Positions 25,667 through 45,790 of a stretch of DNA of 64,000 nucleotides are shown here, piece by piece. The translations under genes were made by a program, and so were the position numbers. The DNA lies in the NCBI GenBank assembly GCA_963750995.1, contig CAVVST010000005.1:347988-411987 (forward strand), given 5' to 3'. The first letter of the stretch is position 1, and each line of letters begins with the position of its first letter. The stretch is from an uncultured Acidobacteriota bacterium (lineage in GTDB: Bacteria > Acidobacteriota > Vicinamibacteria > Vicinamibacterales > UBA2999). The notes under the pieces are model-generated. The model had not been told where the DNA came from. It searched no databases and saw only the letters and a program-made list of their open reading frames with translations.

Positions 25667-26911
25667 TTAACCGACGTTGGCAGAGGTTTCTTGCGGCCTG
25701 CCGGCAAGATCTTGGTGCGACCGCTCTCTCGACCGAAAAAACAGCGCGAAGAGCATCAGGACCACCAACGCTCCGGCGGCCGGAACCAGCCAGATGCGGT
25801 CCCACGCATGGGCGGGCGGCTCTGCCGTGATCACAAACGCATCGACCACGCGCCCCGAGATGAGCGACCCGATGAACATGCCGACACCGAGCGTGACGAA
25901 GGCGATCAGCCCTTGCGCGGCCGATCGCACGTCGGCGGGGGCGCGTTGGTCGACGTAGATCTGCCCGGTCACGAAGAAGAAGTCGTAGCAGATCCCGTGG
26001 AGCAAGATGCCGGAATAGAGCGCCCAGACCATGGCGCCGTCATCGCCAGCGGCGAAGAGCAGATAACGGCCTGCCCACGCGGCCATCCCGACCAGTAGCA
26101 TGTACTTCACGCCAAGCCTGCGGAAAAACCATGGCATGACCAGCATGAAGCCGATCTCCGACATCTGCCCGAGCGTCATCTTGCCGGCCGCGTTGCTGAC
26201 GCCGAGCTCGTTCAAGAAGGGATTCGCGAACGTGTAATAGAACTGGAGCGGGATGCAGATCAGAAACGATCCGAGCACGAACACGGCGAACGATGAGTCG
26301 CGCAGTAATCGCAGCGCGTCGAGCCCGAGAACGTCACGAACGGTGACACGCAGCGCCACCTTCGCCGGCGGCGTATGGGGAAGCGCCAGACAGAACAATC
26401 CGAGCCCAAGCGATCCGGCTGCGGCGATGCGCATCGGAATTGCGGTCGCTTCGAGACCCAGGGTGCCGATGAACAGGCCCGCAACAATCCACCCGATCGT
26501 GCCGAGGACGCGAATCGGCGGGAACTCACGCGATGGATCACGCATCTGTCGGAATGAGATGGCATTGCTCAGGGCGAGTGTGGGCATGTAGCACAGTGCG
26601 TACGCCATCAGAACCGCGTAGAACGGGCCGAAGACGTTCTGCGTGGAGGCCCAGAACAGAATGCCTGCGCCAACGATGTGCAGCCCGGCGAGCAGCTTTT
26701 CCGTTGAAAAGAATCGATCCGCGATCATGCCGACGAAAAATGGCGACAACATTGCGGCGATCGCCGTGGTGCCGTAGGAGAGCCCGATCTGCTGGCCGCT
26801 GAATCCGAGCGTCGCGCCGAGCCAGGTGCCCATCGTGACCGACCAGGCGCCCCACACGAAGTACTGCAGGAACATCAATATGGAGAGCTTCAGGCGCGTA
26901 CCAGGAAACAT
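25667..26911 (-). CDS. MFS transporter, nucleoside:H+ symporter (NupG/XapB)-like
   Basis: N-terminus LKLSILMFLQYFVWGAWSVTMGTWL...MLSPFFVGMIADRFF is characteristic of the NHS family. 12 TM. Confidence 0.8.
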   Translation of the reverse strand: MFPGTRLKLSILMFLQYFVWGAWSVTMGTWLGATLGFSGQQIGLSYGTTAIAAMLSPFFVGMIADRFFSTEKLLAGLHIVGAGILFWASTQNVFGPFYAVLMAYALCYMPTLALSNAISFRQMRDPSREFPPIRVLGTIGWIVAGLFIGTLGLEATAIPMRIAAAGSLGLGLFCLALPHTPPAKVALRVTVRDVLGLDALRLLRDSSFAVFVLGSFLICIPLQFYYTFANPFLNELGVSNAAGKMTLGQMSEIGFMLVMPWFFRRLGVKYMLLVGMAAWAGRYLLFAAGDDGAMVWALYSGILLHGICYDFFFVTGQIYVDQRAPADVRSAAQGLIAFVTLGVGMFIGSLISGRVVDAFVITAEPPAHAWDRIWLVPAAGALVVLMLFALFFRSRERSHQDLAGRPQETSANVG

Positions 26912-26914
26912 GCT

Positions 26915-27883
26915 CTAGGTCCACCAGGGATCTGCCGGCGGCTCGGTCATAACGATGCGGCTCAGGAGATCCACGGCCGCGCGTAATCCCTCGTCCACCG
27001 AGATCAGCGCGTCCTCATGCTCGATGCTGATGACGTGGTCGTAGCCGACGAGGCGGAGCGCCGTGACCATCTGCTTCCAGACCAGCGCATCGTGGCCCCA
27101 ACCGACGGTGCGGAATAGCCAGGAGCGCTCGCCCATCCTGCGGTAGCTCTTGACGTCCAACACGCCGTTGACCGCGACGTTGTGACGGTCGAAGGCGAGG
27201 TCCTTCGCGTGAACATGGAAAATGCAGTCGCCCAATGCGCGGATGGCTGCGGGGATATCCACACCCTGCCAAAACAAGTGACTCGGATCGAAATTGATGC
27301 CGATGGCCGGGCCGGTGGCGCCGCGCAGCTTCAGCATCGTGTCGACGTTGTAGACCAGGAACCCGGGATGGGCTTCGATCGCAATGGTCACGCCGTGATC
27401 GGACGCAAACGCCGCGGCGTCGGTCCAATAGGGAATCGCCTTCTCATTCCATTGCCATTCGAGCACCTCGAGGAACTCCGATGGCCACGGTGTCGTGATC
27501 CAGTTGGGATGCTTGGCGCCATCCGAATCACCGGGACATCCGGAGAACGTCACCACCGTCGGTACCTGTAGTTTTTCGGCGAGGCGCACCGTCTGCCGGA
27601 ACAGCGCGTCAGCATCCCGGGCAACGACCGGATCAGGGTGCAGCGGATTGCCATGGCACGAGAGGGCGCTGATGGTCAGACCGGCGTCGGTCAGCAGCTG
27701 CCGATAGGTGGTGGCGCGGCAGTGACCTTCGATCATGTCCGTGAGGTCATCGAGGTGAGAACGCCCCGGCCATCCGCCCGTCCCCAATTCGACCGCTTCC
27801 ACGTGCCGCAGTGACTTCACCTTCGCGATCATCTCGGGAGTCGAGAGGTGAGCGAACACCGGTGTGAATACGCCCAGTTTCAT
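26915..27883 (-). CDS. xylose-isomerase-like TIM-barrel protein (sugar phosphate isomerase/epimerase family), cytoplasmic
   Basis: ATG at 27883 (MKLGVFTPVF...) overlaps the upstream stop (ATGA). Family motifs ...HVHAKD..., ISIEHED. Confidence 0.8.
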   Translation of the reverse strand: MKLGVFTPVFAHLSTPEMIAKVKSLRHVEAVELGTGGWPGRSHLDDLTDMIEGHCRATTYRQLLTDAGLTISALSCHGNPLHPDPVVARDADALFRQTVRLAEKLQVPTVVTFSGCPGDSDGAKHPNWITTPWPSEFLEVLEWQWNEKAIPYWTDAAAFASDHGVTIAIEAHPGFLVYNVDTMLKLRGATGPAIGINFDPSHLFWQGVDIPAAIRALGDCIFHVHAKDLAFDRHNVAVNGVLDVKSYRRMGERSWLFRTVGWGHDALVWKQMVTALRLVGYDHVISIEHEDALISVDEGLRAAVDLLSRIVMTEPPADPWWT

Positions 27884-29070
27884 CGACCGCTCCCCACCAG
27901 CTCCGCGGCCTGCACCGCCGTCCACACCCCGCCGCGGCGATGGCTCGCCAGCACCGCATCAACCAGGCAAGCTGCGTGATACCCGTCCTCGAACGTGGCG
28001 AATGCTGTCGGCCGTGGTTCGAGGGGGTGACGTGCGATCGCGGTATACACATCCCGAAGCACATTGAAGAAGGCGTCGGCCCATCCCTCCTGATGCCCCC
28101 CGGGCAGGTTCGCGTAGGCGCGCGCGTCAGGTGTGAGCAGAGTCGGATCCTTCGCCAATACCAGGTTGGCCTCGTCGCGACGCCCGATCCAGAGCTCGTT
28201 CTGCCGTTCCTGGCGCCAACGCAGCGACGACCTCGCTCCGTTCACCTCGAGCCACAAGTCGTTCTTGTGCCCGGCGCAGACCTGCCCCACGGACACCGCG
28301 CCCCTGGCGCCGCCTTCGAATCGCATCAGGAACGTGGCGAGATCTTCACTGCGGATCTGAACCGGCTCACCGCGTTCTTCAGTGGCGGCGCCCGGAAACG
28401 CCTCCCGAGCCGTGCGCGGACGATAGCGCGTGGGGACCACGGTCGACAGCTCAGCGAGCACGGATACAACCCGGCTGCCGGTGACGTGTTGCGCCAGATC
28501 GCACCAGTGGGACCCGATGTCCGCCACCGCCGAACTGTCGCCACCCTTGTCCGGTTCGAGACGCCAGGAAAAGTCGGTCGGCTTGAGAAGCCAGTCCTGG
28601 AGGTAGCCGCCATGGACGTAGGTCGTGGAGCCGATATCCCCGGCGGCGATCATCGCGCGGGCCTGCTGAACCATCGGGTTACCGCGGTAATTGAACGTCA
28701 CGGCATGGACCACGCCCGCCTCGCGCGCCGCGAGCCACAGCCCATACGCTTCCTCAGCCGAGGCGGCGAGCGGTTTTTCCGAAACGATATGCTTGCCGTG
28801 CGCCAGCGCTGCGCGAATGATCGGGCCATGCAGGAAGTTCGGGGCGGTGTTGTGCACAACCTGCACCTCGGGATCGGCTGCGAGGGCCTCGAAGCTGCCG
28901 TATGCTTTCGGGACGCCGAGAGCGTCGGCTTTGGCGCGCGTGCGGCGATCGTCAGAACCCGCTATCGCCACGACGTCGACGAAACCAAGCCGACGCACCG
29001 CGTCGATGTGATGTCTCCCGACGAAACCGGGACCGACCAGCCCCATGCCAATCCTGCGTGGTGTTACCAA
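27880..29070 (-). CDS. Gfo/Idh/MocA family oxidoreductase
   Basis: Rossmann N-terminus RIGMGLVGPGFVGRHH, EKPLA motif. TTG at 29070 has GGAGGA 7 nt upstream (alternative ATG at 29046). The longer track ORF would run over the operator and the divergent gene. Confidence 0.8.
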   Translation of the reverse strand: MVTPRRIGMGLVGPGFVGRHHIDAVRRLGFVDVVAIAGSDDRRTRAKADALGVPKAYGSFEALAADPEVQVVHNTAPNFLHGPIIRAALAHGKHIVSEKPLAASAEEAYGLWLAAREAGVVHAVTFNYRGNPMVQQARAMIAAGDIGSTTYVHGGYLQDWLLKPTDFSWRLEPDKGGDSSAVADIGSHWCDLAQHVTGSRVVSVLAELSTVVPTRYRPRTAREAFPGAATEERGEPVQIRSEDLATFLMRFEGGARGAVSVGQVCAGHKNDLWLEVNGARSSLRWRQERQNELWIGRRDEANLVLAKDPTLLTPDARAYANLPGGHQEGWADAFFNVLRDVYTAIARHPLEPRPTAFATFEDGYHAACLVDAVLASHRRGGVWTAVQAAELVGSGR

Positions 29071-29148: not shown

Positions 29149-29162
29149 TGTAACCGGTTGCA
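29149..29162. promoter_or_regulatory. predicted LacI-family operator TGTAACCGGTTGCA
   Basis: 14-bp palindrome fitting the LacI/CcpA-type pattern TGnnAnCGnTnnCA. It lies midway between divergent starts 29070 and 29267. Confidence 0.6.
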
Positions 29163-29266
29163 CATGCGAACTGGATTCGGCCGGGACCGGCAACGTTCCG
29201 ACCGGAGCCAGCCCTCCTCCGCCGTGAGTGAATCGCGACCGGGTAGAATTGGAATCCCCGCACGAG

Positions 29267-30322
29267 ATGTCCACTATCTACGAAGTCGCCAAGCGCGCCG
29301 GCGTCTCCACGGCCACCGTCTCGCGCGTCCTCAGCCGCCCGGATGTGGTTGCGCCCGAAACGCGCAAGAAAGTCCTGCAGGAAGTCGAGCGTCTCGGCTT
29401 CACCCCCAATTTCGTGGCGGCGAACCTCCGTTCGTTTCGCACCTGGAAGCTCGTCGTCACCGTTCCTGATATCTCCAATCCGTTTTTTTCCCAAATCCTT
29501 CAGGGGATCGAAGACGCGGCACAGCGCCGCGGCTATGCGGTGCTCCTTGGAGACACGCAGCACGATACCAAGCGGGAAGAGCGCTACGCGTTGATGTTGA
29601 AGCGCAAGGAGGCGGACGGCCTGATCTTTCTGGGCCACCGGCTTCCCAAGGAAGCGGCCGCGCTGATCAAGGCCGCCGCGCCGCGTTGCGCGCCGATCGT
29701 CAATGGCTGCGAGTTCAGCCCGCGCCTGGGCGTGCCGAGCGTCCACATCGACAACGCGAAGGCCGCAGCCGAGGCGATGGCTCACCTTTATCGTCTCGGT
29801 CATCGGCGGATCGGTGTGATTACCGGTCCGCTGGTGAGTCCGCTCAGCCGCGACCGGCTGCGAGGCGCCAAGGCGCAGGCGGCCTCTGAGGGAGCGGCCG
29901 CCGAACTCCTGTTCGCGCAGGGTGACTTCTCCATCGGCTCCGGTGCCGCTATGGGCGACTACTTGCTGGGGCAAACCAAGCCCCCCACCGCCATCTTCTG
30001 CTTCAACGACGGCATGGCCGTTGGCGTGATCCAGGCGGCCAAGCGACGCGGACGCCGGGTGCCGAACGATCTGTCCGTCATCGGGTTCGATGACATTCAG
30101 TTCGCAGGCTACACCGATCCGCCGCTCACAACCGTGGCGCAACCGATGCGTGAGATCGGCGAAGGCACGGTTCGGCTCCTGCTGGAGATCCTCGAAGGGA
30201 AGACGGACGTGACGCCGGTCTCGATTACGCTGCCGCATACCCTGATGATCCGTGGCAGCACGGCGCCGGTGCAGGCGCAAGCGCAGGGGGCCCGTTACCG
30301 CGGCAGCGCCAAAGCGACGTAA
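29267..30322 (+). CDS. LacI family transcriptional regulator
   Basis: HTH MSTIYEVAKRAGVSTATVSRVLS followed by a periplasmic-binding-protein-like sugar-binding core. Confidence 0.9.
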   Translation: MSTIYEVAKRAGVSTATVSRVLSRPDVVAPETRKKVLQEVERLGFTPNFVAANLRSFRTWKLVVTVPDISNPFFSQILQGIEDAAQRRGYAVLLGDTQHDTKREERYALMLKRKEADGLIFLGHRLPKEAAALIKAAAPRCAPIVNGCEFSPRLGVPSVHIDNAKAAAEAMAHLYRLGHRRIGVITGPLVSPLSRDRLRGAKAQAASEGAAAELLFAQGDFSIGSGAAMGDYLLGQTKPPTAIFCFNDGMAVGVIQAAKRRGRRVPNDLSVIGFDDIQFAGYTDPPLTTVAQPMREIGEGTVRLLLEILEGKTDVTPVSITLPHTLMIRGSTAPVQAQAQGARYRGSAKAT

Positions 30323-30370
30323 TCCGTTTCACCTGCGCATCCGGACGCAGCGCGACCAGACACGCCGGCA

Positions 30371-31337
30371 TCATGTCTCCAGCAGCGCCTTCAGATAGTT
30401 CAACTGCCAGCGCGTCTGCTCGACCGCCGTGCCGGGTGCATCGCGATACTCGCGCTCGAGCAAGAGCATGATCGGCCACTTGTTGTCGCGGATCAGCGTG
30501 GCGCACTCTTTGATCGGCGTGTCGCCGGTGCCGAGCTGCACGTTGGGACCGCCGTCCCGCTTGCGATCCTTGACGTGCAGGTGGGTGATGCGGTCGTGGT
30601 GCTCGCGCAGGAACGCCACCGCGTCGTTGTTGCCGGCGGTGTAGTGCCCGATGTCGAGGTTGACGACAAACGCCTTCGACATGCCGAGCAGCTTCTCCAT
30701 ACTCGCCGGCGTCGCCACTTCGTTCGGATCGTCCACCTGCGCGTGCGGATGCCAGGCCGCCTTGATGCCGTATTTCTCCGCGAACGGCGCCACGCGCGGG
30801 CCCATCCCGACGCGCGTCTGGTTGGTCGTGAACATCGGCACCTTCAGCGCCTGCATCTGCCGGAACATGGCGTCGATCTCGCCGTCGGTCATGTCGTCGT
30901 CGATGGTCTGGACGTAGGAGAAAAGATTGAGCCCCGCCTTGTCGAATTTCGCCCGCACCTCGCGGAAACGATCCAGCGGCTGCGCAATCCGCCACTCTCG
31001 CAGCGCCTGGCGGGACCTGGTGTATTCAGGCGTTTTTTGCGCGGGCGGCTGGCCGAACCGCCCGCCGTTGATCACCTGAGGGGTTCCCTGCGGAAAGACC
31101 GTCACCAGTTCGACATTACCCAGACCTAACGCAAGGCACTGCTCGATGATGACGTCGATGGGATCGCGACCGGTGTTCTCCGGTAGCGGATTCAGCGACC
31201 CCGTGATCAGACCGATCCTGACGCCGCGGACGGTTGACTCGATCGCTGCGGCGCGTACCGGTCAGACCCGGCAGGGCCGACAGTGCCAGCCCCGACAGCG
31301 CGGCAGTGGTGAATTCGCGGCGGGAGTAGGAGCCCAT
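30371..31337 (-). CDS. Tat-exported xylose-isomerase-like TIM-barrel protein T1 (one apparent frameshift near 31260)
   Basis: Tat signal MGSYSRREFTTAALSGLALSALPGL in one frame. The body (...RGVRIGLITGSL... HLHVKDRKRDGGPNVQLGTGDTPIKE...WPIMLLLEREY) is in the next frame. Confidence 0.7.
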
Positions 31338-31345
31338 GGCGACGG

Positions 31346-31765
31346 CTACTGCGCCGCCTCGCCCTTCGGGCGTGCGATGTCGTGATACATGCGCTTGCCG
31401 TCCGGCCTGATCATGTAGAAAAGCGAGATGCCCTTGGAGCCGTCCCTCATCGGGTGCCCGACCAGCGTGATCGGGTCTCCCGGCTTCAGCGTGGCCCGCG
31501 TCCAGCCCTGGCGCGTCATGATGTTGGTGGACCCGCCTTCGACGTCCCACCTCCCCACCGTCGCCTGGTCGACGCCCGGCCCTGGCTTGATGTCAATCGT
31601 GAAATGCACGTGCGGGTTGTTCCACATGTACTCGACCACGACCCCTTTATAGGTCACGTTCTTGTCCATTTCGAACATGCTGAACGAGTGGTGCGCGAAG
31701 AGCGGCCCGCCCGTGCAGGCGATCAGCAGCAGCACCGCTGCAAACACGGCATGGCGAACATTCAT
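31346..31765 (-). CDS. family-A small secreted protein (A3; DUF6152-like)
   Basis: MNVRHAVFAAVLLLIACTGGPLFA|HHSFSMFEMD...EYMWNNPHVHF...LKPGDPITL. RBS GGAGAT. Confidence 0.8.
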   Translation of the reverse strand: MNVRHAVFAAVLLLIACTGGPLFAHHSFSMFEMDKNVTYKGVVVEYMWNNPHVHFTIDIKPGPGVDQATVGRWDVEGGSTNIMTRQGWTRATLKPGDPITLVGHPMRDGSKGISLFYMIRPDGKRMYHDIARPKGEAAQ

Positions 31766-31840
31766 GACATATCTCCACACATCGTCAACGAGCGGCTTGC
31801 GACCCCGATCACAGGCCCAGAAACTGCATTATACTAGGCT

Positions 31841-31854
31841 TGTAACCGGTTACA
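31841..31854. promoter_or_regulatory. predicted LacI-family operator TGTAACCGGTTACA
   Basis: Centre of a 22-bp perfect palindrome GGCTTGTAACCGGTTACAAGCC (31837..31858), about 75 nt upstream of the A3 start. Confidence 0.6.
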
Positions 31855-31887
31855 AGCCCATCCTCGTGCGGGACGATATCGGCGATC

Positions 31888-33579
31888 TCACTGCGGCAGC
31901 GCGTACGCGTAGAGGGTGTCGTCGGACGCAAACAACAGAAACTGCCGCCCATCCAGCATGTAGGTGATCGGCGGGTTCGTCACGTTGTTCAGCACGGGAT
32001 TTCCCTTATCGGGCAGCATTGCACGCCACAGTATCTGTCCGGTGGACGCCTCATAGGCCACCATATAGCCGCCGGGGTTCCCGGCAAACACCACCCCTCC
32101 GGCGGTGCTGAGGAGACCGCCAACCCGATGCGGGCGCGGCGGGTTCCACTCACTGCCTGCGTAGCGGTGAATCCACTTGGCTTTTCCGGTCTTGACGTCA
32201 ATCGCGCGGAGAGACATGTCATAGCCACCGACGCCCTGGGACTGATGTCCCAACTCGCCCGTGACCGGGTCCGGATCCCCATAGGTGTAATGGATGTCGA
32301 ACCCCTGCATCACATTGAAATACAGCAGCCCGGTCTCGGGCATGTAGGTGGGCGGCACCCAATTTTGAATGCCACCATTGCTCGGCGAGAGCAACGCGCC
32401 GCCCCGCTGATACATCTTGGCGGGATTTCGAATCGGCTTCCCCTGCGCGTTGAATCCCAGCGACCAATTGACCGACTCGGCCAGCAGCGCCGACACAAGG
32501 TGTTCGCCGGTCGCCCGATCGAAGAGATAGTAGGTGCCGTTACGGTTCGCCTGGGCGACCACCTTCCTGGGCCGTCCGTCCATGGTCGTGTCAATCAGGA
32601 CTGGTACCTGGTTCGAGTCGAAATCCCAGGCCTCATTCGGTGAAGTCTGGAAGTACCACACCATTTTTCCTGTATCGGGATTGAGCGCAACCAGAGAGCA
32701 GCTATAGAGATTGTCGCCCTTTCGCAGTTCAGGATGGTACATGGGCGTGGGGTTTCCTGTCGGGACGTAGATCAGGTTGAGGTCAGGATCGTACGTGACC
32801 GGCTGCCAGGTCATCCCTCCGCCATGCTCGCGGGCGAAGTCATTCGGCCACGTTTCCGATCCGGGCTCACCCCGGCCCGGCGTCGTGAACCATTTCCACT
32901 CGAGCTCCCCGCTGTCAGGATTCCGCGACTCAATCCAGGCTGGCACATCAAGGGCATCGCCGCTCAACCCGACGAGGAGATGGTCCTTGACGACAACCGG
33001 CGCGGCCGACACGTAGTAGTTGCTCTTGACGCTGCCGATTTCCTTGTGCCAGCGTTCCTTGCCCGTCCTGGCGTCGAGCGACACCAGGTGGCCATCCGGT
33101 GTCCCGAAGTAAAGCCAGTTCTTGTACATGGCCATACCTCGATTACCCGTGTACTCACCACCGCTGCTGCGCCAGAAGTAATGCCAGATTTCGCGCCCCG
33201 TCCTCGCGTCGACAGCCCACGCATGGTCCGGCGCCGTGAAGTAGAGGACGCCGTTGACGAGGAGCGGCGTCGCCATCAGGAAGCCTCTCATTGCCTGTCC
33301 TGAAAACTGGAGGACGGCCTTCTCCACCGTGCCGCCCGTCATCGCTCCGTCCTGGGACAGGTTCGCGCGATACTGCCACTCCAGCCGCAGCTTAGTGACG
33401 CTTGATCTGTCAATCTGCTTCAACGTGCTGTAGTGCTTGCCCGAGTAATCACCGTGATACGTCGGCCACGCGTCGGTAGGAGGCTTTTTCAAAAGCCCGG
33501 GGTCCAGTTTCGCCTGCGCGGACAGCGCCCCCACGAGGACCGCGAGAACGACTGGAACGAGAACGAGTCTGTTCTTCAC
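31888..33579 (-). CDS. PQQ-dependent dehydrogenase (quinoprotein beta-propeller), periplasmic
   Basis: Signal peptide, WPTYHGDYSGKHYS start, and repeated W-containing propeller blades typical of quinoprotein alcohol/glucose dehydrogenases. GTG start overlaps the cytochrome gene stop. Confidence 0.8.
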   Translation of the reverse strand: MKNRLVLVPVVLAVLVGALSAQAKLDPGLLKKPPTDAWPTYHGDYSGKHYSTLKQIDRSSVTKLRLEWQYRANLSQDGAMTGGTVEKAVLQFSGQAMRGFLMATPLLVNGVLYFTAPDHAWAVDARTGREIWHYFWRSSGGEYTGNRGMAMYKNWLYFGTPDGHLVSLDARTGKERWHKEIGSVKSNYYVSAAPVVVKDHLLVGLSGDALDVPAWIESRNPDSGELEWKWFTTPGRGEPGSETWPNDFAREHGGGMTWQPVTYDPDLNLIYVPTGNPTPMYHPELRKGDNLYSCSLVALNPDTGKMVWYFQTSPNEAWDFDSNQVPVLIDTTMDGRPRKVVAQANRNGTYYLFDRATGEHLVSALLAESVNWSLGFNAQGKPIRNPAKMYQRGGALLSPSNGGIQNWVPPTYMPETGLLYFNVMQGFDIHYTYGDPDPVTGELGHQSQGVGGYDMSLRAIDVKTGKAKWIHRYAGSEWNPPRPHRVGGLLSTAGGVVFAGNPGGYMVAYEASTGQILWRAMLPDKGNPVLNNVTNPPITYMLDGRQFLLFASDDTLYAYALPQ

Positions 33580-34436
33580 TTGAGCGTCACCAGGTAAGCG
33601 ACGAGATTGTGCATGGTCTCGTCGGTGTACTTCAGCATCAACTGCCGATGCGCCTCGAGTGGATCATTGATCTCGACCTTTGGTATATCGCTGCCGATGG
33701 GTCGCTCGATGGTGCGTCGATCGCCCGCGCCGTCGATGAGAGTGACGAAGAAATCATCGACCGACACCAGCGTGCCGGAAATGACCTGGCCACGCGCCAG
33801 CGTCACCTTGACCTGAACAGGAACAGATCGAGGAGGAGGGGCGCCCCGCCGGCCCCCTGTCACGACGCGCGGATTGACCATGCGGCCCTGCAGGATGACC
33901 GGCGTGTACTTGCCGCCGACGCCCTTGAGATCTCCGAGCGGCGAATGACACGTGCGGCAGCCGCCGGCGCCGTTGAAGTACGCCTCTCCGGCAACGGGAT
34001 CGCCGACGACGATACTCGCCGGATTCATCGCCGGCCGACCGCTTCCTTCCGCCGCCCGCACCCTGAGGAAAGCAGCGAGGTCCGAAAGCTGCGCCGCGGG
34101 TAGTCCCGGGAAGGGCGGCATGCCAGTCTCAGGCCGACCGACCTTCAGGAAGTCGCCGAGGACCTTGCCGTCTTCGTCGTTCAGCACATACAGCGAACGA
34201 GTCAGGTCCGGCCCCTGTGCCCCTCGCGCGTCCCCGCCATGGCAGAACCCACACGAGGACGCATAAGTTGTCGAGCCCCGCTCTACGCTCGCCGCCTCGG
34301 CTGCCGGCCTCACGCCCAACCGGGTCGCGGCGGTTGCCGCTCCGGCTCCGCCCGGTGGCCCCTCCTGGGCATGCAACAAGGCGAAGACCGCGAAGACGAC
34401 AACCGCGACCGGAGCAAGTCCGCGTACGACGACCAT
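33576..34436 (-). CDS. dihaem c-type cytochrome
   Basis: Signal peptide and two CxxCH motifs (SCGFCHG, GCRTCHS). Confidence 0.8.
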   Translation of the reverse strand: MVVVRGLAPVAVVVFAVFALLHAQEGPPGGAGAATAATRLGVRPAAEAASVERGSTTYASSCGFCHGGDARGAQGPDLTRSLYVLNDEDGKVLGDFLKVGRPETGMPPFPGLPAAQLSDLAAFLRVRAAEGSGRPAMNPASIVVGDPVAGEAYFNGAGGCRTCHSPLGDLKGVGGKYTPVILQGRMVNPRVVTGGRRGAPPPRSVPVQVKVTLARGQVISGTLVSVDDFFVTLIDGAGDRRTIERPIGSDIPKVEINDPLEAHRQLMLKYTDETMHNLVAYLVTLK

Positions 34437-34447
34437 GTCTGATTACT

Positions 34448-37400
34448 TCAGAACAGCAACTTCGCGGCGAACTGCATCTGCCGCGGGATGGCGTTGCCGG
34501 TGCTCGAAATAGTGCCGAACTGGGCGTTGCCGAGCGCCGTGCTCGGGTTGGCGAAGTTCGCGGTGTTCGTCACGTTGTAAACCTCGTAGCGCAACTGCAG
34601 TCTGGAACTGCCACGCAGGTAGATGTCCTTGAACAGCGACAGGTCAAGCCGGCGTTGAGACGGGCCCCAGCCGACGGTGGCTGGCGCATTGCCGAGCGTG
34701 AACTGCGGCTGTGCTTCGAACGCTGCGGTATTGAACCACCGCTGCACGGTCCGCTCGCCCTTCGGGAGGATTGGATCGCCCACCATGTTCGGCCGATCGC
34801 CACCGCTCGTGTTCGCGCGCTCGGTGGAATTCGACACGCTCCATGGACGGCCCGACTGCCAGAAGGTGGAGACGTTCACCTGCCAGCCGGCGAGCAGCGA
34901 CCTGACGCCCGTCAGGTTCCGACCGAACGGCAGCGCGTAGTTGATCTGCCCGACCCATGCATGTGGCACATCGTTGGCCGAGTACCGACCATTCTTCCGT
35001 GAACTCGAACGTCACGGGATCGACCACGGCCCACGCTTGCGGTCCACTGCTCTTCGCCACCGACCGCGTGTAGTGCGTGGTCAGCGCCAGTCCGTCGCGG
35101 AACCGGCGCTGGAAGATGAGCTGCAGCGCGTGGTAGGACGACTCGTGTCGTGTCGTGTAGTAGTTGATGGTGTTCAGGCGCGGTAGCGTTGGCCCGAAGA
35201 TGCGGCGCGCCTGGACCGCTCCGGGGCCGATTGGCGCCAGGTTGAGGTTCTGGTTGTTGCCGCTCGACACGAAGTCGCCGATGTTGCCGACATATCCGAT
35301 CGTCGCGACGTTGCCGGCGAATTCCTTCTCGACATTCAGGTTGAACTGCTGGTAGCGCGTCGACTTCAGGTTCACATCGACCGCCCGGAACGTCCCGGCG
35401 AGATCACGCGCGGCCGAGATGTTCGGTTTCTGCATTTCGGGCAGACCCTGCCTGAGCAGCAGATCCGGCACGCCGCCGAGCGCGTCGCCCAGGCTCGTAA
35501 CCGGACCGTAGAGGGAGAACAGCGGTTCGTTCTTCATCACCGAGAACGACGTCTGGTTCGACGGGACGAACGACAACCCGAATCCGCCGCGGACAACCGT
35601 GCTGTACGGCAACGTGGCGGCGAAGCCGATGCGCGGCTGGACGTTCGAGTAGTCGGTCTTCACGCCGGCCGTTTCCGACGCGCCGTTCTGGCCGGCCACG
35701 TAGAGGGTCCCGGTGAACGGATCCATGTTGGACATCTGATTGTTTTCCTCGGTATACGGCGGGTACACGTCGTAGCGGACGCCGAGGTTGATGGTCAGCC
35801 AGCCGGTCGCGCGCCAGTCGTCCTGCACGAACAGCGAGGGTTCGTTGGTGCGGTACTCGGCTCGAAGGGCGTGTGGTTCCGGAGCACGGTGGATGGCAGG
35901 CCTAACAGGAATGACGCCACCGAGTGGCCGCCCTGGCCGGTTGCGCTGCGAGTCAGGTTCGGGCCGAACGTGAAGATGCCGTTCGGTGACGAGCTCTGGA
36001 TGCTCGCGAATTCGCGCATGACGACGCCACCGCCGAACTTGAAGCTGTGCGCACCCGCGGTCTGCGTCAGCACGGCGCTGAACTGCTTCGTGAGGTTCCT
36101 GATGATGAGCGGCAGGTTCTGCGTGTCGCCCAGAATCGCGAAGCCGTTCATGTTCATCAGCGCCAGTGACGACGCCACGTCGTCGACGTTGACGCCCGGC
36201 AGGCCAAGCGCCGCGCTGGCGTTGGTGCGGAAGTTCGACCGGGTAGGACGCGATGTCGAGATCGAGCAGGCCGCCCTTGAATTCGCCGACGAGGGTTGGG
36301 CTGAACACGCGCACGTAGTTGCCCTGATAGCCTGACGCGGTGGTCTTGTTCGGGCCCGGGAAGCCGGCGTTCGTACCGCGTCAGACAGCCGGGGTAGAGC
36401 CCCGTGGCCTCATTCACAGGACAGCCGCTCGGGGCGTAGTTGTCGAGGTTGTTGTACGACCAGCGGCCCCAGATCGTGTTGCCCGGGTTGAGCCGGTGAT
36501 CGATGCGCACGTCCGCCGTGTGGCTGCGCTGAAATCCTCCGTCGTGCTCTGGTAGTTGTTGGCCAGTCCGCCGGTCGTGGGGGCCGGGAAGAGCGCCAGG
36601 TACCGCGCCGCGATCGGGTCGATGCGGTTGGCCGGAATGATGTTGCCCGGGAATGGCGTACGCGGCGTGGTGACGGGTCGGAGATCGGTGCCGTCGATCT
36701 CCGAGAAGTCGCCTTGGCGCATCTTCATCGTCGGAATGGTCAGGTTGTTGACCTGTCCCTGCTCCGAGTCGAACCCTCGTAGTCGCCAAAGAAGAACGTG
36801 CGGTTCGAGACGACGGGACCGCCGAGGCTGCCGCCGAATTGGTGCTGGTTCAGCATCGGGTCCACCGTCGCAAAGTAGTCGCGCTCGTCGAAGCGATCGT
36901 TGCGGTAGAACTCGTACGCCGAGCCATGGAACTCGTTGGTGCCCGACTTGGTGAGGATGTTGATCATGCCGCCGCCCGTGCGTCCGGTCTCGGCCGAATA
37001 CAGGTTGGTCTGGACGCGGACTTCCGTGAATCGCGTCCATCGACGGCTTGACGCCGATCGTGCCGATGTAGCGCTCGTTGTTGTCCATGCCGTCGATCAT
37101 CTGGTTGTTCTGGGTGTCGGCGGCGCCGTTGATCGAGACCGCCGAGGTCTGCCGGCGATCGTCAGGACGCGTGCCGCTTGCGACTGAGTTGTCGCGCCGT
37201 CGTTCGCGCCCGGCACCAGCTGCACGAGGCTGATGAAGTTGCGTCCGTTGACCGGCAGGTCCTGGACGGCCTTTTCCGTGACCAGTGTGCTGAGTGTCGA
37301 CGCGTCGGTCTGCAGCAGCGGCGACTCAGCCGTGACCTGCACGGTCTCGCTGATGCGTGCCGACGTTCAATGCGCCATCAACGCGGGTGCGGTCGCCGCT

Positions 37401-37685
37401 GGTGAGCGACCGTGCGCGGGTCTGCGCCGAGAAGCCCTGCAGCTCGATCCGCACCGATGTAGGTGCCGATCGGCAGCAGCGTGAACACATAGTCGCCGGT
37501 GTCGCTGACGTCACGGTGGTACGAACGTCCTTGGTACCGATGTTTTCGACCGTGACGGTGGCGCCGGGGAGTACGCCGCCGCTGTTATCCGTCACGCGAC
37601 CGACGATGTCGGCGGTCTGTGCGGAGGCGAGGGAGGGAAGAGCGACAACGAGCAACGCGCAGACGAACCACTTAACGGGATGCAT
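34448..37685 (-). pseudogene. TonB-dependent receptor TBDR1 (carboxypeptidase-regulatory type), at least seven frameshifts as read
   Basis: N-terminus MHPVKWFVCALLVVALPSLASAQTADIVGRVTDNSGGVLPGATVTVENIG. Fragments are in all three frames (track ORFs 37097.., 36414.., 35795.., 34644.., 34448..). C-terminus RQMQFAAKLLF*. Confidence 0.75.
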
Positions 37686-37731
37686 TTCCTTGGATTCCTC
37701 TCTCGGACGAATCCGAGCCAAGCGATGACCG

Positions 37732-37745
37732 TGCAACCGGTTACA
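37732..37745. promoter_or_regulatory. predicted LacI-family operator TGCAACCGGTTACA
   Basis: Same palindrome family, about 45 nt upstream of the TBDR1 start codon. Confidence 0.55.
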
Positions 37746-37800
37746 TTCGAGGGCAGATACTAAGCTAGCCACGGTCTCGAATGCAAGCCGCGGCGGAGTT

Positions 37801-38503
37801 CTACTGCGGCTGCTCGAAGAAGGCGGTGCGTTCCGGGTCGAACGGGTCGCAGAGCTGGTACGGCCGCGCCTCGTACTCTTTTTCAGCGCGCTGATAGCGG
37901 AACTCGTACGAGTGCGGACGTCTGAAACACGGACGGATCCGTCCAGGTGAACCTCACCGAGAGCACGGCTCCGTCTTTCAGCAGACGATAGCGCTCGACC
38001 AGCTGTGAGTTCGCCGTCCTGAATCCGCCGCCGGGAATGGCGGTGATGCCATGCGTCGGCTCGAAGCCCGTCGTATCCACCACGAGCGTGTCCCCTTCCC
38101 AATGCGCGATCGAATCGCCGCTGGTCGTCGGATCGAAGATTTCCTTGTCGATGTGCGTCTTGCGGTTGAGATAGAGATGGCGCACCGGCGTCACCGGTGA
38201 CTCCGCCACGATCACGATCTCCCGGGCTCCCTGACGGATGTTGAGCGGACGCCCCACATCCATCGTCGTCGGCATGCCCACCCAGTTGCACCACCGGATG
38301 GCCTTCGCCGTCTTGCGGGCCTCGGCCTCGATCATCGCCGGCGTGACACGTGGAGACAGACGCGCGGATGGGACGAGACGCCCGTCGATCGGAAGCTCCC
38401 AATACCCGCTGATATCGGGCGGAGCACCCGCTTGAGCGGTGAGCGGCGCGGCACCCGCGAGGATGGCGGCGACTGGCAGCGACGACAGCGGCGAACGTCT
38501 TCA
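37801..38503 (-). pseudogene. family-B secreted protein (B5), at least two frameshifts as read
   Basis: GTG start 1 nt after the B6 stop. Core ...RHLYLNRKTHIDKEIFDPTTSGDSIAHWEGDTLVVDTTGFEP... is in frame. The signal peptide and the C-terminus (...PHSYEFRYQRAEKEYEARPYQLCDPFDPERTAFFEQPQ*) are in other frames. Confidence 0.7.
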
Positions 38504-38504
38504 C

Positions 38505-39295
38505 GCTACTGCACCTGTTTCGGCGGAACGATGGACTGACGCTGCAGGGGATCGCTCGAATCACACCACGTCTCCAGTGCATAGCTGTCCTCGGGAAGCC
38601 GCTCGAAGACGTACTGATAGGTGTGGGGGCGAACGTAGAGCACCGGATCGTCCCACGTGTAGGTGATCGTGAGACGCTTGCCGTCGGGCGCAAGTTCGAA
38701 CCGCTCGGTGAGGCGTGTTTCGGGCCGGCGCTTTCCCCCTCCCTGGCACGTTGCCTTCCGACAGTCCGATCGTCTCGACGATCAGGGCGTTTCCCTCATA
38801 ACGACCGGTCGAGTGGCCGTACATGCTCGGCGTGAACCTCGCCAGGTCTGGATGCGGGCGGCCATCCATGTAGAAGCGCCGGCCGCCGGGGCCCTCGCGA
38901 ACCATCAGGACTTCGTCCTTTGACTGCAGGAGGAATATGGCGGTCGAATTCGGGTTGATCGCGCTGCCGCCCGTGCCTTCGGGCGTGCACGCGCCGTTGT
39001 TGACGATGTACGCCTGGCCGGCCTGATTCGCCGGGCCGCTGCCGGCGCCCGCCGGAATCACATTCCGGCCGTCGCCGCGCACCACCATCGCCTGGCCGGC
39101 GGCCGTCAGCGCTGCCGGCGGATGCTTCTGCGCGGTCCCGTCGAAGCTCCCCGACCCGCTGTCGAGCCGAAGCCAGCCGCCGGACATATCGGGGACGACG
39201 GCTGGCGCCGGCTGCTGCCCCGCGGCTGTTCCGCCGGAACCGATGAACGCGGCCAGCAGCAGCACCGCGGCAACCGCGACACGGCAAGCATTCAT
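38505..39295 (-). pseudogene. family-B secreted protein (B6), one frameshift near 38745 as read
   Basis: MNACRVAVAAVLLLAAFIGSGG... RRFYMDGRPHPDLARFTPSMYGHSTGRYEGNALIVETIGL, then the frame changes to ...RLTERFELAPDGKRLTITYTWDDPVLYVRPHTYQYVFERLPEDSYALETWCDSSDPLQRQSIVPPKQVQ*. Confidence 0.7.
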
Positions 39296-39375
39296 GACAT
39301 ATCTCCATACAAGGGCGTGAAACGACGGCGCACGCGGCCGCTGACCGCGAGGCGTCGAATATATATACCGCCACT

Positions 39376-39389
39376 TGTAACCGGTGGCA
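39376..39389. promoter_or_regulatory. predicted LacI-family operator (one mismatch) TGTAACCGGTGGCA
   Basis: About 80 nt upstream of the B6 start, in the divergent region with the propeller gene. Confidence 0.45.
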
Positions 39390-39417
39390 ATCCACGTCAT
39401 GCGCGTTACACTACGCC

Positions 39418-39431
39418 TGCAACCGGTTACA
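39418..39431. promoter_or_regulatory. predicted LacI-family operator TGCAACCGGTTACA
   Basis: About 30 nt upstream of the propeller lipoprotein start at 39462. Confidence 0.55.
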
Positions 39432-39461
39432 GGCAACCTTCAACCGATTGAGGTGCCTCAC

Positions 39462-40654
39462 GTGCGTATCACGTCAACTCTCGCCACGCCTCGATTGCCA
39501 CGGCGCTCGTCACCGGCTGCGGAGATAGTCAGCCGCGCACGGCGGTCCCGGCCGCTGCGCCAACCCTGCAGGGCCCCTACGGCGTGTACGTGACGAATGA
39601 GATCTCCGGCGATCTCAGTGTCATCGACCCGGCGACGAACACCGCCGTCGCCACGCTGCCGCTTGGGAAACGTCCCCGCGGCATCCGGGTGGCGCCAGGT
39701 GGCACCGATCTGTACGTCGCCCTGAGCGGTTCGCCGATCTCTCCGCCGGGAACCGACGAGTCGGAGCTGCCCCCGGCCGATCGCGCGGCCGACGGCATTG
39801 GCATCGTCGACACCAAGGCGCTGACGTTGCGGACGATTCTGCGGGGACCGCAGGATCCTGAGCAGACGTCCGTCAGCCGCGATGGCGCGCGCCTCTACAT
39901 CGCCAACGAAGACAAGGGGACCGCCAGCGTCCTCGAGGTCGCGGGTGGCAAGACGATCGCTGAATTTGACGTCGGCGGCGAGCCCGAGGGTGTCACCACC
40001 AGCCCTGATGGACGCTTCGTCTACGTGACGTCCGAACAGGACAATCAGGTATCAGTCATCGATACGGCCGCCAGCCGGGTTCTCAAGCAGATCGCTGTCG
40101 GGCCACGGCCTCGCGACACCGCGTTCACGCCGGACAGCAGCCGGGCCTACGTCACGTCGGAGAACAGCGCGAGCATCTCGGTGGTCGACACAACGACGCA
40201 CACCGTCGTTCACACGAGATCAAACTCAGTGGGGAGCTCGTGAGACCGATGGGTGCCATCGCATGTCCCCCGATGGAAAGCGTCTTTACGTGTCAACCGG
40301 TCGTGGCGGCACCGTCGTGGCGGTGGACATCGCTACGACACGCAGGTCGGTTCCGTGGCTGTCGGCGCGCGACCCTGGGGGATCGCGCTCAGTCCGGATG
40401 GCGCGCGCCTCTACACCGCTAACGGCCCATCGAACGACGTCTCCGTCGTCGATACCGCGACGATGTCCCTCGTCACCAAGATTCCCGTCGGTCAATCGCC
40501 GTGGGGAGTGGCGGTGTCGAGCGTTAGCCGAAGGAGTGCTCTACTTCGGCGGCTCGAAGAAGGCGGTGCGTTCCGGATCGAATGGATCGCAGCGCTCGTA
40601 CGGCCGCGGCTCGTACTCCTTTTCCGCGCGCCGATAGCGGAACTCGTAGAGTGA
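39462..40654 (+). pseudogene. YVTN-type beta-propeller lipoprotein, at least four frameshifts as read
   Basis: Lipobox LVTGC is reachable only after a shift near 39488. Repeats are YVTNEISGDLSVID, LYVALSG, LYIANEDKGTASV, VYVTSEQDNQVSVID, AYVTSENSASISVVD, LYVSTGRGGTVVAVD and LYTANGPSNDVSVVD. The last ~40 codons overlap the convergent gene and look non-native, so the real stop may be near 40527. Confidence 0.65.
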
Positions 40655-41241
40655 GGGCGTCTGAAACACGGACGGATCCGTCCAGGTGAACCGCACGGAG
40701 AGCAGGGTGCCGCCTTTCAGCAGACGATAGCGTTCGACCAGGTGTGAGTTCGCCGTCCGGAATCCGCCGCCGGGAATTTCGGTAATGCCCCTTGTTCGGA
40801 TCGAAGCCCGTCGTGTCCACCACCAGCGTGTCGCCTTCCCAGTGCGCGATCGAATCGCCGCTGGTCGTCGGGTCGAACGTGTCCTTGTCGATGTGCGTCT
40901 TGCGATTGAGATAGAGGTGGCGCACCGGTGTCACCGGCGACTCCGCGACGATCACGATTTCGCGCGCTCCCTCACGGATATTGAGCGGCCGCCCCACATC
41001 CATCGTCGTCGGCATGCCCACCCAGTTGCACCAGCGGATGGCCTTCGCCGTTTTGCGTGCCTCGGCCTCGAGCATCGCCGGCGTGACACTTGGGTGACAG
41101 GACGCGCGGGGGGGACAAAGCGGCCGTCAACCGACAACTCCCAGTAGCCGCTGATATCGGGCGCAGCGCCACCTGGCGGTGAGCGTCGCGGCCCCCGCGA
41201 GGAGAGCAGCGGCCGACAGCGACCGCCGCGAGCGTCTTCAC
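40541..41241 (-). pseudogene. family-B secreted protein (B7), paralog of B5, several frameshifts
   Basis: Core RHLYLNRKTHIDKDTFDPTTSGDSIAHWEGDTLVVDTTGFDP. Nucleotide alignment to 37801..38503 holds along the whole length (roughly 85 percent by eye) with indels, including a G7 run at 41108..41114. Confidence 0.65.
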
Positions 41242-41242
41242 G

Positions 41243-42028
41243 CTACTGTATCTGCTTCGGCGGGACGATGGACTAATTCTGAAGGGGATCGCTCGAATCA
41301 CACCAGGTCTCGAATGCATAGCTGTCCTCGGGAAGCCGCTCGAAAACGTACTGATAGCTATGGGGGCGAACATAGAGCACCGGATCTGTCCCACGTGTAG
41401 GTGAGCGTGAGACGCTTGCCGTCGGGCTCAAGTCGAACCGCTCGATGAGGCGTGTTTCCGGCCGCCGCCTTCCTCCGCCCTGTACGGGCCCTTCCGTCAG
41501 GCCGACCGTCTCGACGATAAGGCGTTGCCCTCATAGCGACCGGTCGAGTGGCCGTACATGCTCGGCGTGAACCGCGCCAGGTCTGGATGCGGGCGACCAT
41601 CCATATGGAAGCGCCGGCTGCCGGGGCCTTCACGAACCATCAGCACTTCGTCCTTCGACTGCAGGATGAACTGCGCCGTCGAATTCGGTTGATGGAGCTG
41701 CCCCCCGTGCCTTCAGCCGTGCACCCGCCGTTGATCACGATATAGGCTTCACCGGCCTTGTTGGCCGGGCCGGTCCCGGCGCCTGCGGAATGACGTTCCG
41801 GCCGTCGCCCTGGACTCTCATGGCCTGGCCAGCGGCGGTCAGCGCTGCCGGCGGAATCTTCTTCAGTGGTGCCGTCGAAGCTTCCCGAGCCGCTGTCTAC
41901 GCGAAGCCAGCCGCCAGAAAGATCGGGGACGTCCGCTGCCGCAGCTTGCTGCGCCGTCGCTGATCCGCCGGCGCCGATGAAGCGGCCAGCAGCAACACGA
42001 CGGCAACCACGACACGGCGAGGATCCAT
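41243..42028 (-). pseudogene. family-B secreted protein (B8), paralog of B6, many frameshifts
   Basis: MDPRRVVVAVVLLLAA..., DLSGGWLRVDSGSGSFDG, and FHMDGRPHPDLARFTPSMYGHSTGRYEGNA in shifting frames. An in-frame TAG (41273..41275) lies where B6 has CAG. Confidence 0.6.
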
Positions 42029-42067
42029 GACGATTTTCTCCAGGCAAGGGCGCAGACATGGCGATGG

Positions 42068-42489
42068 CTATTGCGCCCCCTCGGCCTTCGGGCGCGCGAT
42101 GTCGCGATACATGCGCGTGCCATCCGGCTTGATCAGGTAGAGAATGTGGATACCCTTGGAGCCGTCCCTCATCGGATTCCCGACCAGCGTAATGGGGTCG
42201 CCGGGCTTCAGCGTGGCGCGCGTCCCATCCCTGGCGCGCCATGATGTTGGTGGATGCGGATTCGACATCCCATCGCCCGACGGTCGCCGGGTCGACCCCA
42301 GGCCCAGGGCTTGATGTCCACGGTGAAGTGCACGTGCGGGTTGCTCCACATGTACTCGACTACGACGCCCTTGTAGGTCAGTTCCTTGTCCATGTCGAAC
42401 ATCGTGAACGCGTGGTGCGCACTGAGCGGACCGCCCGAGCCGGCCATCATCAGCAGCACTGCGGCAAACACGACACGGCGAGCATTCAT
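42068..42489 (-). pseudogene. family-A small secreted protein (A4; DUF6152-like), two frameshifts as read
   Basis: MNARRVVFAAVLLMMAGSGGPLSA|HHAFTMFDMDKELTYKGVVVEYMWSNPHVHFTVDIKP, then shifted ...TRATLKPGDPITLVGNPMRDGSKGIHILYLIKPDGTRMYRDIARPKAEGAQ*. Close paralog of A3. Confidence 0.7.
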
Positions 42490-42544
42490 GACATATCTCC
42501 TCTGGAGGTTGCGGGCGCCGGTTCGCGCGACCCTGTCCGACTGT

Positions 42545-45500: not shown

Positions 45501-45790
45501 GTCAGGACCGCGCGCGAGCTGTAAGCCGAAAAACCCTGGAGCTCGATCTTCACCGTATAGGTGCCGATCGGCAGGAGCGTAAACACATAGTCGCCGGTGT
45601 CTGACGCCACGGCGGTGCGAACATCCCTGGTGCCAATGTTTTCGACCGTGACGGTCGCGCCGGGCAGGACCCCACCGGTGTTATCCGTCACGCGACCGAC
45701 GATGTCGGCCGTCTGTGCGGATGCGAGGGACGGAAGAGCAAGCGATGCGACCACGAGAAACGTGGCGACGAACCACTTAGCGGGATGCAT
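42545..45790 (-). pseudogene. TonB-dependent receptor TBDR2 (paralog of TBDR1), at least six frameshifts as read
   Basis: N-terminus MHPAKWFVATFLVVASLALPSLASAQTADIVGRVTDNTGGVLPGATVTVENIG. Identical 28-nt leader to TBDR1. The C-terminal ...MQFAAK(LLF*) is lost by a 1-nt deletion, which makes the track ORF read through into A4. Confidence 0.75.

Follow-up and report, generated by a model that had tools for sequence, protein, structure and literature searches.

Five LacI-type palindromes as probable operators of one local regulon in an uncultured Vicinamibacterales bacterium

Within a 64,000-nucleotide stretch of contig CAVVST010000005.1, which derives from an uncultured Acidobacteriota bacterium of the order Vicinamibacterales and is referred to below as the window, a 14-bp palindrome occurs five times in the vicinity of a gene for a LacI-family regulator. 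We consider it very probable that the five palindromes are the operators of this neighbouring regulator, acting as a repressor, and that they join the adjacent genes into one local regulon. This reading had been put forward in an earlier note on the same DNA, and our comparison of loci carrying orthologues of the regulator supports it. By homology and conserved gene context, the system appears to be the Vicinamibacterales counterpart of the proteobacterial CC1627/lacABC regulon. Its assignment to a pathway, i.e., glycoside breakdown of the 3-keto type, is more tentative, and we place it somewhat short of an even chance.

The five sites and the neighbouring regulator

All five 14-mers, as first reported, were recovered at their exact positions (Table 1), as was the 22-bp perfect palindrome described around site 2 (31837-31858, GGCTTGTAACCGGTTACAAGCC). 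Four of the five match all 10 fixed positions of the LacI-operator skeleton TGnAAnCGnTTnCA, and site 4 misses one. They conform to the rule for LacI-family operators, being even-length palindromes with a central CG in non-coding DNA; PMC4052901 gives the CG-centred even palindrome as the hallmark of such sites and places >75% of them 30-140 nucleotides (nt) upstream of start codons. After spurious upstream extensions of open reading frames (ORFs) were discounted, all five sites proved to be intergenic and promoter-proximal, as previously proposed, with start codons 46-122 nt away. More specifically, site 1 lies 102 nt from the start of the Gfo/Idh/MocA oxidoreductase gene (Gfo; 29046, minus strand) and 104 nt from that of the regulator gene (29267), site 2 lies 75 nt from the start of the DUF6152 gene A3 (31765), site 3 lies 46 nt from that of the TonB-dependent receptor gene TBDR1 (37685), and site 4 lies 80 nt from that of B6 (39295), which encodes a secreted protein. 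For site 5, the distances are 122 nt to the start of B6 and ~31 nt to what is probably the start of a beta-propeller lipoprotein gene (GTG at 39463).

The motif is rare in the window, which has a G+C content of 65%. Its degenerate pattern occurred 0 times in 100 dinucleotide-preserving shuffles, and 5 sites with ≤3 mismatches to the consensus TGTAACCGGTTACA were present against 0.65 expected (largest shuffle count, 3). A symmetrised position weight matrix (PWM) built from the five sites scored them at 21.5-26.7 bits, and the next best of the 64,000 positions reached 9.1 bits; the window thus holds exactly five sites, with no weak extras. The PWM scan detected no weaker copies near the other TonB receptors, TIM-barrel genes or DUF6152 genes of the window, and the proposal that the motif serves one of the duplicated modules alone holds within these 64 kb. 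The flanks of the five sites show no similarity to each other, indicating that the sites are independent rather than copies of a repeat element. Nothing was recovered from the window in searches for Rfam families and tRNAs.

The regulator is a full-length LacI-family protein of 351 residues and the sole LacI paralogue in the window. When it was aligned with 24 relatives, its recognition helix (VSTATVSRV) and hinge Leu54 were invariant, which, by analogy with the PurR and LacI complexes, is consistent with the invariant central CG of the sites; it is from the structures of PurR and LacI that the link between hinge leucine and central CG is known. Domain architecture, recognition helix, Leu54 and a CG-centred palindrome are shared with the PurR, LacI and CcpA complexes (2pua, 1efa and 1rzr), from which the window protein differs in being a local regulator with its own motif variant. 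Dimeric relatives match it over its full length, and this, together with its size, suggests the absence of a C-terminal tetramerisation segment; any cooperativity would depend on tandem sites in phase with each other, at a spacing of 21-22 or 42 bp. The closest described group is regulog 5233 'CC1627' of RegPrecise, which the supplement to PMC4052901 enters for Caulobacterales under 'Sugar utilization', with no effector, 4 genomes and 14 sites. With the Phenylobacterium member PHZ_c2158, the window regulator shares 62% identity over its full length (E = 3e-144). Of the label 'LacI/cre-type' given to the sites earlier, the assignment to LacI-family operators therefore stands and control by CcpA does not, the regulator being a local one of the CC1627 group.

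Conservation of the sites and their promoter layout

With the alignment of the regulator and its 24 relatives, we retrieved 80 regulator-orthologue loci from species-representative genomes (±10 kb each, 1.37 Mb in all; designated here by L numbers), in which identity grades continuously from 98% down to 55%; the locus closest to the window, L024, has 89% nucleotide identity. The core TGnAAnCGnTTnCA occurred 84 times in these loci, compared with a mean of 0.37 (maximum, 3) for 59 control palindromes of identical composition, and no core site in the 80 loci fell inside a gene matched by window proteins. A site was located ≤400 nt upstream of the regulator gene in 42 loci, of a TonB receptor gene in 10, of Gfo in 6, of a T1-like TIM-barrel gene and of a major facilitator superfamily (MFS) gene in 5 each, of DUF6152 and of cytochrome c genes in 4 each, and of the TIM-barrel gene TIM1 and of B5/B6 in 2 each. 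Conservation of site plus gene context in relatives, which the earlier note had named as a check, was thus observed. The strongest argument for a single regulon comes from four Vicinamibacterales genomes (L003, L006, L009 and L014), in which TBDR-cytochrome c-quinoprotein-TIM-Gfo-TIM1-MFS are clustered in one orientation and diverge from the regulator gene, with a site in the intervening region. Since genes that are split over four promoters in the window form one operon elsewhere, the five sites can be taken as one functional unit.

Motif variants follow the lineage of the regulator, with TGTAA[C/T]CG.. in Acidobacteriota, TGTAATCGATTACA in Phenylobacterium and TGCAATCGATTGCA in Xanthomonadales; the Caulobacter loci retain only a conserved TGTAATCGAAATCA. 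In seven Caulobacter and Phenylobacterium loci (L079, L046, L047, L041, L045, L051 and L053), we found no perfect palindrome; in the region that separates the MFS gene from the regulator gene (~9885-9910), these share ATGTAATCGAAATCATCGATAAC, which is strictly conserved and has one good half-site and a degenerate second half. Stenotrophomonas/Pseudoxanthomonas loci have a second perfect TGCAATCGATTGCA site 8.7 kb from the regulator gene (L052, L056, L058, L063, L064, L068, L071, L075, L076 and L080, at ~1100-1270). In L063, this second site stands immediately 5' of a TIM-barrel gene that is followed by a GMC oxidoreductase gene, so that the proteobacterial regulon also appears to span two loci.

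The sites also keep a regular position relative to promoter-like hexamers. Operator 2 overlaps the -35 element (TTGTAA, 31855-31850) of a TTGTAA-16-TATAAT promoter upstream of A3, its arm itself forming the -35; read on the gene strand as cTTGTAA-CCGGTTACAAGCCTAG-TATAAT, this promoter has 10 of 12 consensus matches, and the same layout of operator over -35 is conserved upstream of the DUF6152 orthologues in L024, L001, L002 and L057. Similarly, an arm of operator 4 forms a -35-like TTGCCA that is separated by 17 nt from a -10-like TATATA (39362-39367, minus strand). Operator 1, on the minus strand, begins 1 nt past a -10-like TCGCAT (29164-29169), with a -35-like TTGCCG (29188-29193) 18 nt upstream, giving a putative Gfo promoter of the form TTGCCG-18-TCGCAT-g-operator, and this order of -35, -10 and operator is repeated upstream of Gfo in L024 and L001. 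Likewise, most of the ten receptor loci have a similar layout before the TonB receptor gene (TTGACA/TTGCC-17/18-TAGCAT/TAGGAT-c-operator), most clearly L005, L009, L010, L014, L015, L020 and L074. In the window, operator 3 is found 11 nt downstream of a -10-like TAGTAT (37757-37762), with a -35-like TTGCAT at 37781-37786. This geometry is kept across loci despite diverged flanks. The overlap of the operators with the polymerase footprint, together with the conservation of the hexamers in otherwise diverged intergenic DNA, indicates, as an inference from sequence, that the operators act in repression.

Sites 4 and 5 lie 42 bp apart, centre to centre. A second, weaker operator is present 21-22 bp from the main one in nine loci (L003, L005, L009, L014, L030, L032, L033, L037 and L074), in the region between the regulator and TBDR genes, upstream of the regulator gene. 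As 21-22 and 42 bp correspond to whole helical turns, the paired sites suggest cooperative binding of two dimers. Operator 5 may serve B6-B5 as an auxiliary operator, or it may belong to the propeller gene. The propeller gene as a target gains no support from conservation, being near the regulator gene in none of the 80 loci, and its membership in the regulon is uncertain.

Alternative readings

Were the sites read by another LacI-family protein encoded outside the window, e.g., a global regulator of the CcpA/cre type, the presence of the neighbouring gene would be incidental. That the 14-mer fits the generic LacI/cre consensus and that CcpA is the best match of the regulator among solved structures would agree with such a view, but the motif precedes the orthologous regulator gene itself in the 42 loci noted above, which belong to two phyla, its variants track the regulator phylogeny, and it is confined to one functional gene set instead of being spread over many operons. 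Furthermore, the regulator scores 231 bits with the ccpA model TIGR01481, below the cutoff of 442, and CcpA with HPr-Ser-P is known from Firmicutes. We therefore regard an outside reader of the sites as improbable. Least credible of the alternatives, and rejected, is the idea that the palindromes work through hairpins in RNA or DNA, as terminators or attenuators, or that they stem from the copying of a short repeat. It draws on site 2, whose 22-bp perfect palindrome lies 33 nt past the quinoprotein stop codon and folds to an 11-bp stem; this hairpin, however, has no U-tract, no terminator call and a fold z-score of -0.8, and the palindrome beyond 14 bp is not conserved in L024, L001, L002 and L057. 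The 14-bp palindrome by itself gives a 5-bp stem only, and the sites, with their unrelated flanks, are placed relative to -35/-10 hexamers and not to gene ends.

A different question is whether real operators of the neighbouring regulator could control the use of another class of substrate, namely nucleosides, as in CytR-like systems, or inositol-type cyclitols. The transporter belongs to the NupG nucleoside:H+ symporter family, the best NCBIfam model of the regulator is CytR (NF008269), the JGI names of its relatives describe (CytR-like) repressors of deo/udp/cdd/nupG, and the Gfo and TIM-barrel proteins have weak IolG and IolE matches. All of these scores nevertheless fall below their cutoffs (CytR, 325 versus 436 bits; NupG-type transporter, 412 versus 446 bits), those of IolG (87 bits) and IolE (32 bits) far below, and no nucleoside phosphorylase, deaminase or deoxyribose gene was found in any site-bearing unit of the window. 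The window regulator shares with E. coli CytR the LacI family and an association with NupG-type transport, but its targets are not nucleoside catabolic genes, and its operator is a standard CG-centred palindrome near promoter hexamers, unlike the CRP-dependent arrangement of CytR operators. In addition, phenotypes of the orthologous Caulobacter cluster have been described for lactose, raffinose and salicin (PMC9007349). A nucleoside or inositol regulon is, for the substrate question only, a possible answer and an unlikely one, if less so than the two readings above.

Several points weigh against our own reading, i.e., that the five palindromes are operators of the neighbouring regulator and serve one glycoside-related regulon. 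The survey covers 64 kb of the source genome and, in each of the other genomes, ±10 kb around the regulator gene. The promoters were recognised solely by their match to the consensus, and a promoter scan passed the one at site 2 alone. For the regulator gene, the best -10-like element lies ~85 nt downstream of site 1; autoregulation is therefore not evident in this genome. The association of B5/B6 with a site recurs in just two other loci (L057 and L001), and the propeller gene, as noted, has no conserved link to the regulator. The reading frames of TBDR1, T1, B5, B6 and the propeller gene are interrupted in this sequence, the quinoprotein is without the canonical motifs for pyrroloquinoline quinone (PQQ) and for the Ca site, and the TIM barrels resemble the characterised eliminase and hydratase enzymes weakly (E = 6e-6 at best).

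Probable target genes and a proposed glycoside pathway

With loci of the CC1627 group, the window shares an orthologous regulator, a divergent operon of NupG-like MFS, TIM-barrel and Gfo genes and, in the case of the Phenylobacterium loci, a 14-bp CG-centred palindrome of the same kind (TGTAATCGATTACA). It differs in phylum (Acidobacteriota; Vicinamibacterales), in being split over four or five promoters, and in content, adding a TonB receptor, a cytochrome c/quinoprotein-like pair, DUF6152 and a secreted family without a Pfam model, with no GMC/FAD dehydrogenase of the lacABC type. In L079 (Caulobacter sp. Root343), the genes NupG-like MFS-TIM-Gfo-TIM-(unknown)-GMC oxidoreductase-gluconate-2-dehydrogenase-type small subunit run divergently from the regulator gene, which has a TonB receptor gene on its other side. 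This order matches the C. crescentus lacABC locus (Price et al. 2022, PMC9007349), where the genes for transporter, epimerase and reductase are important to cells growing on lactose. Bitter et al. 2023 (PMC10628242) showed that Agrobacterium turns a glucoside into aglycone and glucose with four enzymes, namely a GMC glycoside 3-dehydrogenase, a beta-eliminase and a hydratase that are both TIM barrels, and a Gfo reductase. Both sets (lacABC and GlycDH-OGE-HYD-Gfo) appear to follow the logic predicted for the window, in which oxidation in the periplasm is combined with TIM-barrel enzymes, a reductase of the Gfo family and a transporter devoted to the pathway; their genes adjoin this regulator family, and they hold the best characterised relatives of the window Gfo and TIM1. 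More specifically, Gfo is closest to C3 oxidoreductases of the levoglucosan-dehydrogenase type (6A3F, E = 1e-38), although its best NCBIfam model, LevoglcsnDh, gives 170 bits against a cutoff of 650, and the sole characterised relative of TIM1 in the PDB is the A. tumefaciens 2-hydroxy-3-keto-glucal hydratase 8RO4 (AtHYD, E = 6e-6).

In the window, by contrast with these sets, the candidate for the oxidising role is a quinoprotein homologue of TIGR04528 whose cytochrome c is a separate protein, and similarity between the TIM barrels is slight (25% identity, E = 1e-8 to 6e-6). No GMC homologue is present in the window, and a GMC/FAD glycoside 3-dehydrogenase with a twin-arginine translocation (Tat) small subunit is accordingly missing from it. 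Across the orthologue loci, a GMC dehydrogenase lies ≤10 kb from the regulator gene in 31-32 of 40 proteobacterial versus 5 of 40 acidobacterial loci, whereas the quinoprotein and cytochrome c pair is near it in 12 of 40 acidobacterial versus 1 of 40 proteobacterial loci. These reverse distributions suggest a non-orthologous replacement of the oxidising enzyme. The quinoprotein had been labelled a PQQ dehydrogenase, of which its quinoprotein-like nature is upheld: it passes TIGR04528 'acido-empty-quinoprotein group A' with 660 bits (cutoff, 650). The canonical PQQ motifs are absent; aligned with the quinohemoprotein alcohol dehydrogenase 1YIQ, the protein has a gap at the vicinal Cys-Cys, and GDALDVPA replaces GAEFGVRG, leaving its cofactor uncertain. 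Its gene is translationally coupled to the cytochrome c gene. TIGR04528 was presumably named for acidobacteria without PQQ synthesis.

Two further families are encoded beside these genes. In DUF6152 proteins, the predicted signal-peptide cleavage site coincides with an invariant Ala|His-His, and W48, Pro-His (P51-H52), W73 and E76 are invariant too; the N-terminal His-His suggests binding of a metal or ligand. An AlphaFold model of A3 (mean confidence score, pLDDT, 82) is a small OB/Mop-like barrel, and a fold search gave weak PDB matches only (all E > 0.006). The B family (~255 aa, with a signal peptide) has no Pfam (E ≤ 5) or NCBIfam model; it has 325 matches at E ≤ 1e-5, and among the matches listed, all are from metagenome assemblies. 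In its AlphaFold model (pLDDT 74), a barrel at the C-terminus weakly resembles calycins (lipocalin/FABP/avidin), with all matches at E > 0.006. Among the ORFs scanned, there was no Pfam match to DUF1080. A literature search returned no papers on DUF6152, TIGR04528/'empty quinoprotein' or the CC1627/CCNA locus tags.

Table 1. Candidate operators, genes and paralogous copies in the 64-kb window
Feature	Position	Strand	Sequence	Description
Operator 1	29149..29162		TGTAACCGGTTGCA	between regulator gene and divergent Gfo-TIM1-MFS operon
Operator 2	31841..31854		TGTAACCGGTTACA	upstream of DUF6152 (A3) and T1; centre of 22-bp palindrome
Operator 3	37732..37745		TGCAACCGGTTACA	upstream of TBDR1
Operator 4	39376..39389		TGTAACCGGTGGCA	one arm imperfect; upstream of B6
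Operator 5	39418..39431		TGCAACCGGTTACA	between divergent B6-B5 and propeller gene
LacI-family regulator	29267..30322	+		Pfam LacI (helix-turn-helix), Peripla_BP_1 and Peripla_BP_3 (sensor domain resembling periplasmic binding proteins)
Cytoplasmic operon Gfo-TIM1-MFS	25667..29046	-
NupG-like MFS transporter	25667-26911	-		Pfam/NCBIfam
TIM1	26915-27883	-		xylose-isomerase-like TIM barrel; Pfam/NCBIfam
Gfo/Idh/MocA oxidoreductase	27880-29046	-		Pfam/NCBIfam
T1	30371 to ~31335	-		Tat-signal TIM barrel; frame break in signal peptide
A3	31346-31765	-		DUF6152 protein
Envelope operon TBDR1-cytochrome c-quinoprotein	31888..37685	-		genes overlap or abut
Quinoprotein-like protein	31888-33579	-		8-bladed propeller, TIGR04528
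Cytochrome c	33576-34436	-
TBDR1	34451-37685	-		TonB-dependent receptor; at least 4 frame breaks
B5	~37801/37883-38500	-		secreted, no Pfam family; paralogue of B6
B6	38561-39295	-		secreted, no Pfam family; paralogue of B5
Beta-propeller lipoprotein	39463-40654	+		YNCE/lactonase-like; frame-broken
B5'	40626-41158	-
B6'	41301-41930	-
A4	42071-42489	-		DUF6152; 75-82% identical to A3
TBDR3	42556-45790	-
T2	45937-46500	-
DUF6152 genes	17707-18039, 23829-24137, 31349-31765, 42071-42489, 51740-52117
B-family genes	23396-23647, 24373-24756, 37886-38500, 38564-39295, 40626-41158, 41301-41930, 51055-51615

Single-base frame breaks are scattered across 30371-46500 (e.g., at ~31250, ~37919 and ~38745, and within 34451-37685, 39463-40654 and 42071-45790). 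A4 and TBDR3 are also broken, and the paralogous module at 40.6-46.5 kb is broken throughout; the TBDR2, quinoprotein, regulator, Gfo and MFS genes are intact. In contigs of related strains from four rhizosphere metagenomes, single bases of the window are missing at 37457 and 37918-21 (4/4 runs), as well as at 38483 and 38745. The public reads come from related strains only, sharing ≤14% of words with the window, and so hint at 1-nt insertions in the window without proving them. Since the related contigs are without those bases and the nearest genomes are long-read metagenome-assembled genomes, assembly indels are the likelier explanation, with pseudogenes as the alternative.

A second module without an operator adjoins the first on the minus strand (40626-46500; B5' to T2 in Table 1), and a 93-nt copy of the propeller-gene 3' end (77% amino-acid identity) stands beside B5 at 37816-37908; together, these point to an old segmental duplication. 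DUF6152 and B-family genes occur together beside TonB receptors with a CarboxypepD_reg N-terminus at 31-39, 40-46 and 49-52 kb, with a fourth DUF6152/B-family pair at 23-25 kb, and the grouping looks like a recurrent Vicinamibacterales uptake module. A further set without an operator comprises two TIM-barrel genes (55471-56493 and 56451-57368) and a Gfo/Idh/MocA gene (57360-58589) whose product is extended at the N-terminus and 26% identical to the regulated Gfo; this suggests several parallel sugar-oxidation modules in this genome. Elsewhere in the window, a caspase-like Peptidase_C14 protein (7005-8669, minus strand) and a TIR-domain protein (10894-12309, plus strand), the gene for which lies directly 5' of the intact TBDR2 (12310-15777), have weak PADLOC matches to caspase, SAVED_TIR and ThsB, and may be defence-related.

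As to how the regulon may operate, we propose that, without inducer, a repressor dimer would occupy each site and block RNA polymerase. Blocking would occur through overlap with the -35 element and spacer at the DUF6152-T1 and B6-B5 promoters; at the Gfo-TIM1-MFS promoter, the bound site would abut the -10, and at the TBDR1-cytochrome c-quinoprotein promoter, it would lie 11 nt past it. One repressor would thereby co-regulate three layers: (i) an outer-membrane importer; (ii) a periplasmic oxidising module made up of the quinoprotein-like propeller, the cytochrome c, a Tat-exported TIM barrel and two secreted families; and (iii) a cytoplasmic module of transporter, TIM barrel and Gfo oxidoreductase. 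The inducer is probably a glycoside-derived, possibly 3-keto, sugar. A glycoside would enter across the outer membrane via TBDR1. In the periplasm, the quinoprotein-like enzyme would oxidise it and transfer the electrons to the cytochrome c, and the oxidised product would then be handled by the Tat-exported T1, perhaps assisted by the B and DUF6152 proteins. The sugar-derived product would be imported by the NupG-like MFS transporter and converted by TIM1 and Gfo, the glycoside being cleaved by a sequence of oxidation, elimination, hydration and reduction in which the quinoprotein-cytochrome c pair takes the place of the FAD/GMC dehydrogenase. A stricter version, in which this is an Acidobacteriota-specific oxidation-elimination pathway, with the 'empty' quinoprotein and cytochrome c displacing GMC, and with the DUF6152 and B families acting as accessory proteins together with the TonB receptor, is a doubtful proposition at present; if true, it would for the first time place three uncharacterised families, all of them abundant in soil metagenomes, in a functional context.

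The regulatory mechanism would be an ordinary, textbook one, and the group has already been reconstructed in silico in Proteobacteria; what is new is the phylum and the expanded gene content. The value of the regulon lies in the functional link that it provides for the TIGR04528, DUF6152 and B families. Vicinamibacterales are abundant in soil and rarely cultured, with almost no experimentally grounded gene regulation, and one repressor with five sites offers a handle on what these bacteria eat. The finding also bears on non-hydrolytic 3-keto cleavage of glycosides, known from Agrobacterium, Caulobacter and gut Bacteroidota, which in soil Acidobacteriota may proceed with a different oxidising enzyme.

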